From a virus (lineage: Duplodnaviria; Heunggongvirae; Uroviricota; Caudoviricetes): a stretch of 41,648 nucleotides of DNA. Shown piece by piece: positions 268 to 41,173 of the stretch; the first letter of the stretch is position 1, and each line of letters begins with the position of its first letter. Under the pieces are notes generated by a model, which saw only the letters and a list, made by a program, of their open reading frames with translations, did not search any database and was not told where the DNA came from. The stretch lies in the IMG/VR virus record IMGVR_UViG_2541047962_000003; one strand, written 5' to 3'. Made by a program: the position numbers and the translations under genes.

Positions 268-399
268 CTGGCGAGTTTTATACTCGTTCCCTGCAACAAT
301 GGCTTTTTGTAATGCACTCACAAATAAGGAATTCGTTAAGGCTTTTGTTCTGGAGACTCTGAAAGATACAAGGAATCAGTTGATGGCTGGTTTGATCAT

Positions 400-440
400 A
401 CTAATTAATATATTGTCAGACTCACAATATATTAATTAGT
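400..440. repeat. Perfect 16-bp inverted repeat with 9-bp spacer (ACTAATTAATATATTG / CAATATATTAATTAGT); candidate operator or recombination site
   Basis: Read directly from the sequence, about 130 bp upstream of the 568 start codon in an AT-rich intergenic region. Confidence 0.6.
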
Positions 441-567
441 GGTAGAACATAAAACCGAGTTCTTGACTTTCAATAGCTATTATATGCGATCAACAACCTT
501 AACCACCTCCTTATATTTTATGAGATACTCAAACAATTTAAATTTATGAGCAAAGGAAAATAATAAA

Positions 568-1413
568 GTGAATAAAAATCCCTGGGATATTCCAGCATGG
601 CACGCTCTGGGCCGAGAAGCATCTTTAGTAACACAGCTCATTGGTTCTGGGGCAACAGCCATAGGTAAAGCCAATTATGCAGACAAAATAGGTGAATATT
701 ACACAGCATTTTTTGGGCTTTCTGTAGGTTTTGAGAGACTTGCTAAACTAATACTTGTTGCACACTATGCCATTGAACACAAAGGAAAAATGCCTGACGA
801 GAATATTGTAAGAAAATTTGGACACAAGCTCATTGAATTAACCAACGAGGTTGATAGTATTTCTAAAAAAATGCAACTATCTCTGAGATATTCACGTCCT
901 ACACATAAAATTACCTACAAAATACTTGAATGTTTAGATTCCTTTGCTGATGCCCGACGGGGACGTTACGCAAATTTCTCCTCATTAAGCAGCCCCAATT
1001 TAACCAATAATGAACCTATTAATAAATGGTGGGGAGAAGTAGCCGAGAGTATCCTTGAAAAACATTATTATTATACAGTTGAACAAAGACGTGTTGAAGA
1101 AAATGCTAGGTTTATCAATGCCACTCTTTCACCGTATACAACGGTCATGTATATGAATGAAAGTACCAACATTATGCAAGACCTTATATCAGCCTCCATC
1201 CGTACTGGACAAAATACCATTGTTCAAAAGTGGGGAAGATTCTATTCTCTTAGCATCGCTCGTTGGCTTGCCACAGTATTAGCAGAACTGTCTGATATAG
1301 CTTCTCATAAATATGGAATAATTAGTTTTTATGGCCTTAGTGAACATTGTTGCAGTTATATAGTTGAAGATAGTTTTTTAAAAAACAGAAAAATATGGCC
1401 ACTTCGCCAATAG
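568..1413 (+). CDS. Hypothetical protein, 281 aa, AT-rich orphan gene; candidate accessory or defence gene
   Basis: Long ORF with GTG start preceded by AAAGGAAAA. Visibly AT-rich compared with flanking phage DNA. No confidently recognised domain. Confidence 0.6.
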   Translation: MNKNPWDIPAWHALGREASLVTQLIGSGATAIGKANYADKIGEYYTAFFGLSVGFERLAKLILVAHYAIEHKGKMPDENIVRKFGHKLIELTNEVDSISKKMQLSLRYSRPTHKITYKILECLDSFADARRGRYANFSSLSSPNLTNNEPINKWWGEVAESILEKHYYYTVEQRRVEENARFINATLSPYTTVMYMNESTNIMQDLISASIRTGQNTIVQKWGRFYSLSIARWLATVLAELSDIASHKYGIISFYGLSEHCCSYIVEDSFLKNRKIWPLRQ

Positions 1414-1732
1414 TTAACGAGAAAATCTGCATAAGGGGGAGAAATCCCCCACCTGTAATAACATAACTACTAAAATTAACACCTTGTTCGCGCAACTCCT
1501 CCACCAGCACGACAAGATGCCGCACACTGCGCCCCAGTCTGTCCAGCTTCCAGACAACCAGCGTATCTCCTTCTGATAGCGTTCTGAGCAGTTTTTTCAA
1601 TCCCGGTCTGGCTGATTTTGTTCCGCTGATTTTATCTTCAAAAATCAGTTCACATCCTGCGCACTCCAGCGCGTTACGCTGCAATTCTGTATTCTGGTCA
1701 TTTGTTGATACGCGGACATAGCCAATAAGCAT
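1337..1732 (-). pseudogene. Gin/Pin/Hin-family serine DNA invertase, truncated; only the N-terminal ~87 residues (about 1472-1732) are invertase-like
   Basis: N-terminus MLIGYVRVSTNDQNT...LVVWKLDRLGRS matches the invertase catalytic domain. After ...REQGVNF the frame continues into unrelated sequence, and the helix-turn-helix C-terminal domain is missing. Confidence 0.8.
1435..1450. terminator. Hairpin GGGGGA-gaaa-TCCCCC, possible bidirectional terminator between the orphan gene and the invertase remnant
   Basis: Perfect 6-bp stem with tetraloop 22 bp after the stop at 1413. No strong T-tract on the + strand, so weak. Confidence 0.3.
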
Positions 1733-3151: not shown

Positions 3152-4014
3152 TATGCAGCCCTCACGATGTAATTAAATGAAAGGTTACGAGGGCGCATTG
3201 ATATCCATGCCCCGGTAAAATTATCCTCCGCTGTCCTTTGAGTACCCGTTATGGAGTTATCTGCTGATGCAGGAACATAATCGCTATTATTTCCTGCTTT
3301 AGGATTAGCTGGGTTTCCAACAGTTATAACAGAATCAGCAGTAGCAAAAGCGATACCTACTTTGACATTAGTATTCAGATCGTAACCGTAATAATCCTGC
3401 AAAGCTGTACGAATAAATGTTGCAGCCTGACCACTTAGCAATGAACGCCCCGTATCAATCCCTCTAGAATCATCCCAGCCACGAATAAACTCACCACGTA
3501 AATCAGGCAATTTATTTGTCGGGTAAGCCTTTGCCAGTTCCGGGTATTCTTCAGCAGAAAAAGCTGCTCCGTTGCATTTCAGCCAGCCTGTTGGAGGTGT
3601 CTCTGAAGGCCACGGAACAGGTGCACCAACAGGTAATGCTGAACCTTCTCCCAAACCAAGGTTTTCGAGAGCCGTTTTCACCGTGCCATCCGATTTGATA
3701 TCACCAAACGGATTCTTGCGGCTCAGGTATTCAACAGCAAACCCCGATCCCAGCAATTCAACAAAACCGGGCAGATCACCATTATCAAGCACATCCCGTT
3801 GCGTTTTATCACTTACAAACTGGGCCAGAGCTGCAGCAATAAAGCTGGCCTGCCGAATAACCTTATTGACTTGCGCACTGGAGGCTTTCCCTGCTGTAAA
3901 TCCAGATAAAAGCGCAGGCAACGCTTCCCATTCCTCCTGCGACATAACATTGGCATTTTTACCCGTTGCGAATGCTTTAAAGTCATTTTTTGCCATCAGA
4001 GTAATACTCCCCAT
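3151..4014 (-). CDS. Tail-fibre protein (constant N-terminal part joined to a variable C-terminal part at the crossover site)
   Basis: 287 aa. The crossover site lies in-frame within ...[11 protein letters not shown].... e14 StfP-like arrangement. Confidence 0.75.
3645..3670. repeat. Invertase crossover site, distal, inside the tail-fibre gene
   Basis: CTTCTCCCAAACCAAGGTTTTCGAGA. Inverted copy of the 1788-1814 site. Confidence 0.65.
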
Positions 4015-4676
4015 GCCCCTAGATCAAAACCACTGATAAATTCGTTATCCATATCAAAACCAAAAAATTTTGAACCTTCCGATGGGGTTTCCACCGAAGG
4101 TGTTTCAATGCCACCCGCCCACACCCCGGCGGCTTTTACTGTGAGATATCCCTGTTTAATTGCAGCAATTAACTCACGCGATACATCTGAAATATCAGTA
4201 TCAGGAAAGACCCAGACCGATATCGTCATGTCCTGGTTATCGACAATCTGCATTCGCAGTCCGGATCCTGCTGTTGCAGCGTCAAGGATTGCCGGAAGCG
4301 AATCATTCCGTCCGTCCCAGTTATTAATCGCAATCTTCGCTTTAAGAATGACACGATAAGTTTCATCGCTGAGATACATGTATCCTGAATCAGGATCATA
4401 TGGCCCCTGCCATACCCCCTGATCATATCCAAGCCCGTCGGTATCCCAGCGGAAATAGACACCTGAGATAGGCTGGCTGACAACACGGCTACGTCCGATC
4501 CACAATCCAAGAATGTCAAGTTGCACACCAACCGCAGAGTCAATATCAAATACAGTAATCAGCCCTCTGGTGGCAGCCGCAACATCAATAAGCGGCCGGG
4601 TCATCAGATCAACATGTGCAAGAAATTTAGGTTTGGTGGCGTGGTAGTTCGTGATTAGTTCGGTGTATTTGCTCAT
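3996..4676 (-). CDS. Tail protein (YmfQ/DUF2612-like)
   Basis: 226 aa, between the baseplate J gene and the tail fibre as in e14 (jayE-ymfQ-stfP). Confidence 0.55.
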
Positions 4677-7034: not shown

Positions 7035-7607
7035 TTATTTAGGTTTCTTCCTACCATAAACAAACACTGTAGTTAATCCTACGAGATCTAAAGTAGCAAG
7101 AGTACCTGCGAACCAAGTGTTACCGCGATTAGCAAAAAACGCAGCCATTATAAGCACTACCATTGCAATGCAAAATCCCATCCATTGCCCACGTTTGTCG
7201 CGTGAAACCGCACCAAGTAATGCATCACTTTGCGTCTTATGCCTATGCTCTTGCTCTTTTTCGGTTAGCCTGAAAATTCTCTCAGCGCCGCCGGGTAATA
7301 TTTGATTATATTGTAAGAGCATAGCAGGAGGTGGGAGTGGTCCCTGAAAAGACTCCTGCTGAAACATGGCAATAACCTTCGGGTTCTTAGAAACTCTCTC
7401 AAGAAGTTCAGGTGTTAACTTCGATTTTAGCTCAGGATCAAGGTTGGCAACTGCAGACAGCTTTTCCACTACTTCCTGAGACTCATCATATTCCGAGGAA
7501 TCAATATCTTCGTCGATACCATCCGAATCAGGAACGGCTTTTTGCGACGCTTTGTTTTCCTGATGCTTTTTGAGAACGGCCGCCTGCTTGCGGGGTTTTG
7601 AACTCAT
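7035..7607 (-). CDS. Membrane-anchored protein, DUF2335-like (C-terminal transmembrane helices); start codon uncertain
   Basis: 190 aa. Motif ...LPGGAERIFRLTEKEQEHRH... followed by two hydrophobic helices. Overlaps the upstream small ORF by 80 bp; an internal GTG with an AGGAAG site is an alternative start. Confidence 0.55.
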   Translation of the reverse strand: MSSKPRKQAAVLKKHQENKASQKAVPDSDGIDEDIDSSEYDESQEVVEKLSAVANLDPELKSKLTPELLERVSKNPKVIAMFQQESFQGPLPPPAMLLQYNQILPGGAERIFRLTEKEQEHRHKTQSDALLGAVSRDKRGQWMGFCIAMVVLIMAAFFANRGNTWFAGTLATLDLVGLTTVFVYGRKKPK

Positions 7608-33210: not shown

Positions 33211-33852
33211 ATGTCACAGCCCGTATTAACTAATCACCTTAAAACTCAAATCATCAATAACGCACTTGAGAAAGCGGGTATCCCCAAACGTAAATCAGCA
33301 CTACGAGCTGCTCGTGTTGAATGGGCCGAACGTGTTCGGCTTGCAGCTATCGGGGGCGTAGAGAAAGAAGCTGAAATATTAAAAAATATAAAAAAGATTG
33401 AATCCATGGTAACAAAAATCCCTGATTCATTAAAAACCAATAGTTCTTTAATTCGAAAAGATTGCTGCATATATCTCAATCTGGCTGGAGCCAGAGCAAA
33501 CATTTATTTCAATGGCAACTACAGAGGTTATGAATCAGGAGCCCCCGAGCATATTAATAAAATAGCACCTGCAGAATTTACTCTACTTGGCGAAGATCCT
33601 CTGGTAACGGAGTTTTATAGCTTTGATGCTCTCTACACACAAATTAAAAGTGATGAAACCGAAATCATACAGAACGTCAGCGCGGCTCTAAATAAAGTTC
33701 GGACAGTAAAACGATTACTGGATGTATGGCCCGAAGCTAAAGAACTGCTTCCAACAGACGCACCGCCAGTCCCTTTAGCACCAGCAGTACATCGAGAGAC
33801 ATTAAATGAAATGATAGGCCTTCCTACCAATACAGTGTCTGATACTCAATAA
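33211..33852 (+). CDS. Hypothetical protein, AT-rich
   Basis: ATG at 33211 preceded by GAGGGAAAG. No domain recognised. Confidence 0.5.
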   Translation: MSQPVLTNHLKTQIINNALEKAGIPKRKSALRAARVEWAERVRLAAIGGVEKEAEILKNIKKIESMVTKIPDSLKTNSSLIRKDCCIYLNLAGARANIYFNGNYRGYESGAPEHINKIAPAEFTLLGEDPLVTEFYSFDALYTQIKSDETEIIQNVSAALNKVRTVKRLLDVWPEAKELLPTDAPPVPLAPAVHRETLNEMIGLPTNTVSDTQ

Positions 33853-34535
33853 CAAGGGGGATGCTTATTATATGATTTTGAACGTTTTACAATCTCGTTA
33901 AGAGGCGTGAAATCAAAATCTCTGAATAACACATCAGGATACTTCGCTCTTGCTTTATCCAGCAAACCAGTTAAAGTATTTTTTGTGTTACCCAACATTG
34001 TATTAACCGCCACTACATGTCTAATTTCTGGAGGTTTATCTATACCACCAGAAATTGCTTCATTAAGAACCGACGCCAGTGGGGTTTGTCCCTTACTTGT
34101 TGAATCCCACAGCGTCATTAACAGACGAGCTGCGTCTATAAATAGCTTTTTGTCAGCATTTGGCTTGACAGTAATACCAGAACTACCTGAGCCAGAACCG
34201 GAACGTTCTATTGCTGCACTGGTATCCGATTTCATAGGATTAAATAACGGCAGCTCTGTACAACCGATACGCCGAATGAAATCCTTTGCAACATCTCTAC
34301 CACAGAAAAAAGCCCCTGTACAATTTTCATCAGAGCGTTTTTTAAATGAAAAACAATAGTACTGATCGGTTAACGGATAACCGGAATAACTGGTTTTAGT
34401 TTGTCCAGTAATAAGTTTCAGGTGTGCAACAGGCTGAATAATAAAATCCCGAACTATCGCATCTTTTATGTCGTTACCACGGTGACAATAATATTCAGGT
34501 AATCCATTAGGCTGTCTCTTATTACCCACAGTCAT
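33846..34535 (-). CDS. Hypothetical protein (229 aa) with Cys/His-rich N-terminal region and Ser/Gly linker; antisense to the early operon
   Basis: AT-rich. Convergent with the preceding gene (7-bp overlap). Divergent AT-rich promoter region shared with the polymerase gene. Confidence 0.5.
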   Translation of the reverse strand: MTVGNKRQPNGLPEYYCHRGNDIKDAIVRDFIIQPVAHLKLITGQTKTSYSGYPLTDQYYCFSFKKRSDENCTGAFFCGRDVAKDFIRRIGCTELPLFNPMKSDTSAAIERSGSGSGSSGITVKPNADKKLFIDAARLLMTLWDSTSKGQTPLASVLNEAISGGIDKPPEIRHVVAVNTMLGNTKNTLTGLLDKARAKYPDVLFRDFDFTPLNEIVKRSKSYNKHPPCY

Positions 34536-37441: not shown

Positions 37442-38167
37442 TCATTCTGAGCGATTTTTCTTGAGCTTAGAAGCTTTTAAAAAACATACTTTTAGTTGTT
37501 GTGTTTCTTTTATGCTTACAGGAATTAATTTCCCCTCAATTCCTTCGACACTCATAAATTCAGAGCTATTTTTTTTACAGTTCCCCAAGACAAATTTTCC
37601 GTTATAGCTTTCGATAATATAAGCATCATATTTTTTAGAATAAAAAAGAGGCTCATCTGATAAGTATGCCCATGCCCACCCAAGGACTGAAGGAAGCATT
37701 GCTATGGATATAAAAAACATAACCCCATGAGTTTTGTTTTTTATTCTAAATTCATTCCTAATAAAAACAGATACTGCCCTGACACTGATAGGGCTAATAA
37801 ATCCCAATAGTATTGCTTGGGTAGCCACATCCCTTATGGATTTTTCATAAAGGTATGAGCTACCGCCATATAAATACATTGTCCAGTATGAAAGCAAAGA
37901 GGCCAAAATGAAGAAAAATAAATACACCCCCCATGGAATATTCTTCTCTTCAGTATCAATATGCAGCAAAGCGACTAAGGTGCACAAAAGTCCTAATGCA
38001 ATAACAGAAAACTTAACTATTTCCTCAATCCCAATAGAAATAAAACTTACAGGGAATCCATAAAATGAGCTGTATCCTTTGTAAAAAGAAAAAGCCATAA
38101 AATAAAGGGCGGCCAAGAGAACCGTTGTAATTGATAAATCTTTTACATTCATGATGTTCAAGAGCAC
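37442..38167 (-). CDS. Polytopic membrane protein (241 aa), very AT-rich, antisense to the early operon
   Basis: Four to six hydrophobic helices. Inserted between the VRR-NUC and SNF2 genes on the opposite strand. Confidence 0.55.
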   Translation of the reverse strand: MLLNIMNVKDLSITTVLLAALYFMAFSFYKGYSSFYGFPVSFISIGIEEIVKFSVIALGLLCTLVALLHIDTEEKNIPWGVYLFFFILASLLSYWTMYLYGGSSYLYEKSIRDVATQAILLGFISPISVRAVSVFIRNEFRIKNKTHGVMFFISIAMLPSVLGWAWAYLSDEPLFYSKKYDAYIIESYNGKFVLGNCKKNSSEFMSVEGIEGKLIPVSIKETQQLKVCFLKASKLKKNRSE

Positions 38168-39582: not shown

Positions 39583-39779
39583 GCGAGAAACCCGACGATT
39601 TACTCACCCCGGATGAAGTATGCCAAAAGTTAGGTATTACACAGAAAACGCTATGTGAGTGGAATATTAAGCATCGTCATCGGGCTATCCTGGCACCAAT
39701 TCGTTTCAGTGCAAAAGTAGTTCGTTATGAGCGCCGAAATGTCGACGCTTTTATTCAAAAATGTCGCAGCCAGTATTAA
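39579..39779 (+). CDS. Excisionase / AlpA-like helix-turn-helix protein
   Basis: 66 aa. ...LLTPDEVCQKLGITQKTLCEW... Converges on the integrase gene. Confidence 0.55.
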   Translation: MSEKPDDLLTPDEVCQKLGITQKTLCEWNIKHRHRAILAPIRFSAKVVRYERRNVDAFIQKCRSQY

Positions 39780-41173
39780 CCTCGCCGCCGTAGCAATGCC
39801 ACCTGCGCAAGTATGCTCCGCTCGTGAGCCTCGAAAGCTTCGCGCTTCAACGCAATCTCTTCCTGTAAAATCTCATCAGAAAAGTCGTAATGTTCTGCCA
39901 TCGGGTCATCTGACTTGCTGGAGTGGTGAAGGCAAAGGAGGCTGATTTCCCTTCGGTCTGAGCGGGAATAGCCTCTTTCCTTCATCAAGGCAATAACATT
40001 GCTCTTAAGGAATTTACGGCACATCGTATTAAATGCACCGTCTTTCCCTTTAACAGTCCCATCATGTTTTATTCCTTTTACAGCCCCGTCCGGGCTGTAT
40101 GTTTTCACCAGCTTATCCAGTGATCGTTTTGAAAATGGCTGCATTGGATCACGTGGCTGCAAAAATACATAATCCCTGTTGCACTCAGGAACTGAATCAC
40201 GCCAGGCTTTCTGCTCGTCGATAATCCGCCGGATCTCAGGCGTTATCGGCAGGCGGAAAGCCTTTTGTGTTTTCATAGCCCCTCGCATGCCGATAACCCC
40301 TTCCGGATAAACAATTTCACCAGCCTCCTCGTGAACGTAATCCCAGCGCAGGTTATGGACATTAATCGGACGAACACCAGTGATGATCATGAAGCGAACA
40401 GCATTCTTCTGGTGTACAGAGGTGCAGGCAGCAACATTGAGCCAGAGTCGGGCGATTGATTCAATATCGGTAAAAAGCCGTGTGGGGGTGGGTTTCTGTA
40501 CGCGGGAGGAAACATAATCATCTGGCAGACTGGCGGCAACATTGCGGCCATTGCAAAGAGTAGGTGCGCAGAACTTCCAGAACCGACGGAGCTCGGCAAA
40601 CAACTCCAGGGCGTTATTGTTCGAGCGAGTGGCGATCCACTCGTCCAGCACTTCCACCAGCCGATTGTATGTTACGTCGCTGAACACCTCGCGCTCGCCG
40701 AACGTGGCTTTAATCCGGTCGATACGCACCCCGTAGGTTGTGAAACTGTCCGGGCTCAGCTTCTGCCGGGCGACTTTGGCTTTGAGGTCATCCCGGTACA
40801 TTTCCAGCGCTGCATGTACGGACTCTGCCCGCAGGCCACCGTCAGCCATACCTAGCGCTTTTTCGCGCGCCAGCTGGATAGCGAGCTCCGGCCACTCGCC
40901 GAGCTTTTTACCCTTGAGGCCCATCTTTTTTGGAAACTCGGCGTAAAATGTAACCTTACCGGCTTTGCTGAAATCGATACGGAGATAGTTCTCTTTTTCG
41001 TATTTGGAACGGCGAGCCACGCCGGAAGCAGCGAGGATGATTTTGGCGGCAGCAACACAGATTTTCATGTGTGCGCTGGTATAGGGGGGTTTACAGGCGT
41101 CCCATTTTTCAGATGCGGCTAAAACATCGTCATTATTGGGGCTATCCGGATTATGTGTTACAGTGCGCGGCAT
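39776..41173 (-). CDS. Tyrosine site-specific integrase
   Basis: ...ITGVRPINVHNLRWDYV... box I and C-terminal ...LHHSS...EHY. ATG at 41173 preceded by AAGGA. Confidence 0.8.
   Translation of the reverse strand: MPRTVTHNPDSPNNDDVLAASEKWDACKPPYTSAHMKICVAAAKIILAASGVARRSKYEKENYLRIDFSKAGKVTFYAEFPKKMGLKGKKLGEWPELAIQLAREKALGMADGGLRAESVHAALEMYRDDLKAKVARQKLSPDSFTTYGVRIDRIKATFGEREVFSDVTYNRLVEVLDEWIATRSNNNALELFAELRRFWKFCAPTLCNGRNVAASLPDDYVSSRVQKPTPTRLFTDIESIARLWLNVAACTSVHQKNAVRFMIITGVRPINVHNLRWDYVHEEAGEIVYPEGVIGMRGAMKTQKAFRLPITPEIRRIIDEQKAWRDSVPECNRDYVFLQPRDPMQPFSKRSLDKLVKTYSPDGAVKGIKHDGTVKGKDGAFNTMCRKFLKSNVIALMKERGYSRSDRREISLLCLHHSSKSDDPMAEHYDFSDEILQEEIALKREAFEAHERSILAQVALLRRRG

Follow-up and report, generated by a model that had tools for sequence, protein, structure and literature searches.

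What is the AT-rich gene that occupies one end of an Escherichia coli prophage, at the position where the 3' half of a tail-fiber invertase is expected, and does it have a role in defense against phages? The window (the whole stretch of DNA analyzed herein, 41,648 nucleotides; IMG/VR record IMGVR_UViG_2541047962_000003) had received a preliminary description based on its letters alone, in which this gene was regarded as an orphan and a candidate for a single-gene anti-phage or abortive-infection function.

The prophage and its cargo slot

The window matched a stretch of the E. coli MS20658 chromosome with 100% identity. It contained a complete prophage of the myovirus type (~41 kb) at a site between yfhH and yfhL. 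The integrase is encoded at 39776–41173 (−), and the AT-rich cargo gene is located at the opposite end of the prophage, beside the yfhH-side junction.

A truncated Pin/Gin-type serine invertase was found at 1465–1732 (−). Its frame reads as far as ...REQGVNF and then continues into unrelated sequence. The preliminary description had placed the end of the match at this point, and three sources agreed with it: the Pfam Resolvase match was restricted to residues 3–89, PGAP annotated 1465–1732 (−) as a pseudogene without a C-terminus, and sister prophages, including O55:H7 CB9615 with its intact 183-aa pinE, gave the same result. The truncated invertase retains residues 1–87 only and has lost both the remainder of its catalytic domain and the DNA-binding domain at its C-terminus. 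The substituted segment (283–1470) was delimited by its GC profile and by a comparison with two sister prophages (L078 of O55:H7 CB9615, and L079), the homology of which to the window stopped at 282 and resumed at 1466–1472, inside the invertase. This comparison placed the left junction at 282/283 and the right junction at about 1466–1472. The GC content was 36.2% for 283–1472 versus 49.6% for the whole window, in agreement with the AT-richness noted earlier.

On its left, the cargo slot has a conserved border, an 88-aa phage ORF (1–267, +; phrog_17793) beside the yfhH-side prophage end. Positions 1–282 of the window were common to 125 E. coli genomes, approximately 80 of which diverged exactly at 282. 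The ORF was a fixed border in all 125 and was left unannotated by PGAP in many of them. Among 5,426 complete E. coli genomes, 44 carried the 281-aa gene, each as one chromosomal copy with at least 98.6% identity. At the same yfhH site, O55:H7 CB9615 and BH100 carried the 88-aa ORF, then a different gene of 215 aa, and then an intact 183-aa pinE. This alternative cargo (WP_001288816.1; L078 5326–5973, also present in L079) had a GC content of 33.5% and no Pfam match; the N-terminal helix of its product is hydrophobic, and the rest is coiled-coil-like. It represents another uncharacterized candidate for exclusion or defense.

Since the homology of the sister prophages resumed inside the invertase, we concluded that one AT-rich cargo gene was swapped for another and that the 3' half of the invertase was removed in the process. 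The insertion of the 281-aa gene destroyed the prophage's own invertase. The local meaning of this cargo swap is that it killed the enzyme with which the prophage switched its host range. The earlier view of this position as a recognized cargo slot was borne out by the sister prophages at yfhH–yfhL: the content of the slot varied, and the sisters with an intact invertase carried the different, AT-rich 215-aa gene. The analogy drawn with e14 also held, with the order there being pinE, mcrA, and the prophage end.

Two 20-nt crossover-like repeats in inverted orientation, at 1795–1814 (left) and 3645–3664 (right), bound the invertible tail-fiber segment. In strain FDAARGOS_144, an identity of 99.9–100% was observed for the flanks, which include the same truncated invertase, and the internal segment was inverted and diverged (88–94%). 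Because the segment of FDAARGOS_144 was inverted and diverged, inversion or cassette exchange still occurred despite the dead invertase of the prophage itself. In this lineage, inversion was presumably mediated by a Pin-family invertase supplied in trans. Other features of the window were also recorded. A DUF2335 gene at 7035–7607 (−), followed by a gap of ~320 bp, breaks the otherwise tightly packed baseplate/tail operon and may be a second moron. The replication module (33211–34535 and 37442–38152) includes two hypothetical genes on the opposite strand (33846–34535 and 37442–38152) and a nucleotide-modification gene of the Nmad5 family, and these three genes may be further accessory or anti-restriction cargo.

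Flanking signals and mobility of the 281-aa gene

The gene at 568–1413 (+) encodes WP_001039127.1, a "hypothetical protein" in PGAP. The GTG start codon at 568 is the point at which the alignments of homologues begin. A Shine–Dalgarno-like AAGGA is located at 553–557 (+), 10 nt before the GTG and within the stretch shared with homologues elsewhere, which starts at 531–552. The ORF call and this motif corroborated the earlier statement that the 281-aa gene has its own ribosome-binding site.

The upstream palindrome required correction. A repeat was present, but it was not a perfect 16-bp palindrome; it was an inverted repeat at ~399–441 with a perfect 18-bp stem and a 7-nt loop, capable of forming a hairpin (−17 kcal/mol, z = −6.3). 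It overlaps a promoter-like site and is a possible operator. The repeat was confined to this prophage context, being absent from the flanks of homologues and from the sister prophages. The downstream hairpin was real: a GC hairpin (GGGGG/CCCCC) at 1435–1450 (+), 22 nt past the stop codon, folded with −14.6 kcal/mol (z = −3.1). The terminator scan did not call it, and since it is not followed by a T-run, it is not a canonical intrinsic terminator.

The DNA common to the window and to homologues in other contexts comprised only ~531–1412, namely, the ribosome-binding site and the ORF. The family thus moves between genomes as a bare ORF, and the palindrome and the hairpin were rejected as parts of the mobile unit. 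In V. cholerae, the gene fills one integron cassette of ~1 kb bounded by VCR-type attC repeats. [quoted passage not shown] We therefore excluded a conserved partner or antitoxin on three grounds: no recurrent neighbor, no shared flanking DNA, and a single-ORF integron cassette. The GC content of the gene was lower than that of the surrounding DNA in 40 of 54 loci (mean difference, 0.08). The 281-aa gene is best explained as prophage cargo acquired by horizontal transfer.

Family size and conservation

The term orphan used in the preliminary description was wrong. A word-indexed search identified at least 486 homologues of the 281-aa protein in Gamma- and Alphaproteobacteria, with identities of 56–74% across these classes. 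The best 120 of these were 279–294 aa in length and shared 56–99% identity, and their hosts included Enterobacter, Citrobacter, Serratia, Klebsiella, Pectobacterium, Morganella, Vibrio, Marinobacter, and Methylocella; all 120 were annotated as hypothetical and were without a Pfam domain. An exhaustive HMMER search yielded 788 clusters at 50% identity, 467 of them at E ≤ 1e-10, and nearly all were ~270–285 aa.

Full-length homology was found for a second subfamily of 273 aa (hhalign probability 100%, E 5e-57, 22% identity), which was present on enterobacterial islands and on approximately 130 conjugative plasmids of the IncX type. On one IncX1/X3 plasmid (L069), the 273-aa homologue at 3603–4424 had DinQ-like type I toxins, hns, hha, and topB as neighbors, with a SMEK-domain gene nearby. 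As a whole, the family is carried by prophages, by these plasmids, and by one ICE-like element.

An alignment of 42 sequences contained 63 invariant columns. Across 93 distant members, with identities down to ~27%, six residues were invariant: E17 (codon at 616–618, +), E56 and R57 (733–738), K60 (745–747), H86 (823–825), and W154 (1027–1029). R133 and Y134 (964–969), N136 (973–975), R232 (1261–1263), and D268 were present in at least 90% of these members. The same set of residues was invariant in the 273-aa plasmid subfamily, although this is only 22% identical.

Scans of the 281-aa protein against Pfam, NCBIfam, PADLOC, and PHROGs gave no match; with PADLOC-DB v2.0.0 (5027 models), there were 0 matches at E ≤ 1. 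Searches of PDB sequences with the protein and with the 93-sequence profile were similarly negative, and a literature search by the accession WP_001039127 returned no paper. The earlier designation as undescribed is provisional only: the family falls outside Pfam, NCBIfam, PADLOC (2023), and PHROGs.

Genomic contexts

The family repeatedly lands in recognized defense locations. In the Vibrio integron, its cassette adjoins SieB and RES-Xre, and toxin-antitoxin (TA) cassettes are also found around it. In a P2-like prophage of Serratia, the gene is located between gpA and the portal gene Q, beside a PvuII R-M system; the gpA–Q site is the tin/old hotspot of P2. In a P2-like prophage of Morganella, it is situated between the tail-fiber assembly gene G and the sheath gene FI, which is the tail-gene slot of P2. 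These hotspots have been documented (PMC9122126, PMC13586616). The Pectobacterium gene is directly downstream of a Gabija-like pair (an OLD-TOPRIM ATPase and a UvrD helicase), and that of Paraburkholderia follows a 1,857-aa helicase resembling DruE of Druantia. In Enterobacter, hsdR precedes the gene by 86 bp, and the integrase island to which both belong also carries Vsr, HNH, and DUF4917 genes. The Klebsiella and Citrobacter genes are at the edges of prophages or islands. Many loci, e.g., that of Methylocella, have ordinary metabolic neighbors.

A single Type I R-M lineage adjoined the gene in 9 of 52 species-level loci and in one metagenome (L016). The complete order hsdM-hsdS-X-hsdR, with X as the family gene, was found in 8 of these 9 loci and in L016; the remaining contig (L028) ends after X. 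The HsdR proteins of this lineage were 70–91% identical to one another and 25% identical to the Enterobacter HsdR. In the Acidocella locus, an ORF for a CAP12/Pycsar-type TIR effector (L040 5291–6025; PF10137, E 5e-34) is located between hsdS and the family gene. The presence of this TIR effector suggests that the hsdS–hsdR gap of this Type I lineage is a site where effector genes accumulate. In two Type I operons of Erythrobacteraceae (L054 and L067, 9368–9979), a 204-aa ORF without a Pfam match separates hsdS from the family gene. The 281-aa gene of the present window is not embedded in an hsd operon.

The anti-phage or abortive-infection role suggested for the gene was well supported by these contexts (the integron, the P2 hotspots, Gabija, Druantia, the TIR effector, and Type I R-M).

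Predicted fold and candidate active site

An AlphaFold model of the 281-aa protein (model 1; pLDDT 84, pTM 0.85) was all-helical with one β-hairpin. A model of the 273-aa plasmid subfamily, obtained from an independent alignment (model 2; pLDDT 93, pTM 0.90), had the same order of helices. Its structural matches were again 4nqf (7.7), YutE (7.3), both HEPN toxins, TT1696, AF0298, sacsin, Csm6, AbiA, Swt1, MtlR, and the integron HEPN protein 3jrt. Foldseek found no match against PDB at E ≤ 0.001. The two models support a predicted HEPN-like fold.

The preliminary description had called a possible R-x5-H motif, RYSRPTH (residues 107–113), only weakly HEPN-like. The two models upheld the HEPN-type fold, but not this motif: P111 was its only conserved residue, and we rejected RYSRPTH as a HEPN motif. 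A canonical Rx4-6H motif was not conserved in any of four family alignments, and no His follows R133. We also rejected [R/K]82-x3-H86 as a near-canonical motif, since its basic residue is not conserved across the family. Pfam gave 0 HEPN matches for the 281-aa protein, and 2 of the 93 distant members matched HEPN_AbiV weakly (E 0.002). HEPN scans of the 93 members with NCBIfam, of three family consensus sequences, and of half-length fragments, as well as with the PDB profile, showed no HEPN link.

The first ~190 residues would form the four-helix core of a HEPN domain, with helix 1 at 14–34, helix 2 at 41–70, a helical insert, helix 3 at 114–127, and a kinked helix 4 at 150–187. E56 lies within the helix at 41–70, H86 in the insert that follows, and R133 at the end of the helix at 114–127, where the chain enters a loop. 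A putative active site of the AbiV/AF0298 type would accordingly combine the acidic E56 of helix 2, H86 as an alternative His from the insert between helices 2 and 3, and R133 as the motif Arg at the end of helix 3. Mapped by the order of the predicted helices, the placement of E56, H86, and R133 appears to fit the published description of the AbiV/AF0298 type. The stretch R133–N136 lies in the least confident part of model 1.

Proposed function and alternative explanations

We favor a self-contained, single-protein anti-phage defense of the abortive-infection type, most plausibly a self-restrained HEPN-like RNase, and give this reading an even chance of being correct. A defense role of the 281-aa family as such is fairly probable, and the prospects of an RNase mechanism fall slightly short of even. 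The protein would be inactive until it receives a phage cue, and the C-terminal β-hairpin and 43-residue helix may serve in oligomerization or in sensing of the trigger. After the cue, it would cleave RNA (tRNA or rRNA), and the infected cell would be arrested. The copies located between hsdS and hsdR may provide a second line of defense behind Type I restriction, like PrrC. We tentatively extend this to a more specific proposal, which is the less probable for its detail: an undescribed family of solo HEPN-fold effectors that lacks Rx4-6H, uses a Glu/His/Arg site, combines the sensing of infection and the action against it in one polypeptide of ~280 aa, spreads as a minimal cassette (in integrons, both P2 hotspots, prophage ends, plasmids, and Type I R-M operons), and in these operons acts as a PrrC-like backup without an NTPase regulator.

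The Type I linkage may also be read in another manner. The protein may be an accessory or guard subunit of Type I R-M that only works with an Hsd complex, which would be supplied in trans in E. coli; like PrrC, it could, for instance, detect anti-restriction proteins. The association with one Type I lineage in 9 of 52 loci and L016, the location between hsdS and hsdR wherever the contig reaches (8 of 9 and L016) with start codons abutting hsdS, the occurrence 86 bp after the hsdR of an unrelated Type I lineage in Enterobacter, and the fact that the hsdS–hsdR gap is the position of prrC are consistent with such a subunit. However, in approximately 40 of the 52 loci, hsd genes were not detectable within 10 kb, the gene is also a lone integron cassette and is found in P2 slots and at prophage ends, and the ABC-ATPase domain of PrrC is absent. 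We regard this explanation as quite unlikely. A toxin or addiction module that stabilizes mobile elements and integron arrays without a direct anti-phage role is similarly improbable. HEPN proteins are common as the toxins of TA systems, and the gene is found among TA cassettes in the Vibrio integron and among DinQ-like type I toxins on IncX plasmids; however, a conserved adjacent antitoxin gene was not observed, the cassette has a single ORF, no flanking DNA is shared that could hold an RNA antitoxin, and a lone toxin would not be tolerated.

Carriage on prophages, on the ~130 conjugative plasmids of the IncX type, and on an ICE-like element is also what would be expected of a phage- or plasmid-borne gene that overcomes host systems, that is, an anti-defense (counter-immunity) gene or another type of fitness gene. 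Its embedding in chromosomal R-M operons and its proximity to Gabija, Druantia, and TIR genes argue against this. Furthermore, anti-defense genes are rare in P2 elements (28 of 1511), and the HEPN-like fold with an invariant acid, His, and Arg suggests an effector enzyme. We consider a counter-immunity function to be very improbable. The fold itself may be read differently: the protein may be a non-catalytic helical regulator or nucleic-acid binder, the resemblance of which to HEPN reflects the generic similarity of four-helix bundles. This is unlikely, and a defense protein with an RNase-type active site remains our preferred reading.

If confirmed, the self-restrained HEPN-like defense protein would reveal a widespread single-gene defense family, with its 788 clusters at 50% identity, that current annotation and defense-finding libraries have missed. 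It would also offer a compact model for how enzymes with a HEPN fold function in the absence of the canonical Rx4-6H motif and how a solo effector remains silent without an antitoxin. Moreover, the copies embedded between hsdS and hsdR would be a natural test of layered restriction and abortive-infection immunity without the ATPase of PrrC.

Comparison with known systems

Solo HEPN defense proteins on mobile elements are a known kind, whereas the present family is in none of the libraries searched. The AbiV and AF0298-like families retain the Arg and lack the motif His, and have an alternative conserved His from the insert between helices 2 and 3. These HEPN-T variants (Pfam PF18728; PDB 9bj5 and 2hsb) showed no significant sequence or profile similarity to the 281-aa family, which is longer by ~80–130 residues and has a C-terminal extension. 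Furthermore, lactococcal AbiV needs the RNA antitoxin abiV2, whereas the 281-aa family travels as a bare ORF.

The family resembles PrrC and RloC in its hsdS–hsdR position in one Type I lineage and in its HEPN-type effector fold. However, PrrC and RloC have a canonical HEPN motif and, at the N-terminus, a regulatory domain of the ABC-ATPase type, and the 281-aa family has neither; for the 281-aa protein, Pfam and model 1 showed no ATPase domain. Unlike PrrC and RloC, most copies of the family are not linked to hsd genes. Regarding its location in the prophage, the gene can be compared with mcrA of e14, a defense cargo gene flanked by the tail-fiber invertase gene pinE on one side and by the prophage end on the other. 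McrA belongs to the HNH Type IV restriction enzymes, and pinE of e14 is intact, whereas the invertase of the window has lost its 3' half.

DARNA/PD-T7-3 was excluded as an identity of the family: it has 456 aa and a canonical motif, and PADLOC, which covers the PD systems of 2022, gave no match. Esos (bioRxiv 10.1101/2024.07.02.601686), an integron cassette of V. cholerae N16961 described as having "only a HEPN-like domain", has been shown experimentally to be anti-phage. Compared by description only, it shares with the present family the single-gene cassette in a V. cholerae integron and the HEPN-like fold. Among the close homologues, V. cholerae was represented by a single cluster, with three member sequences on three contigs. 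Since this is too rare for a gene of a pandemic strain, a close identity with Esos is unlikely.

HepS (PMC13043305) is a solo HEPN anticodon nuclease of the Gifsy-1 prophage. It has fewer than 250 aa and a canonical R100-x4-H105 motif, and these defining features exclude it as an identity of the 281-aa family, to which it has no sequence relationship. By analogy, we favor for the 281-aa family an abortive-infection mode such as that of HepS.
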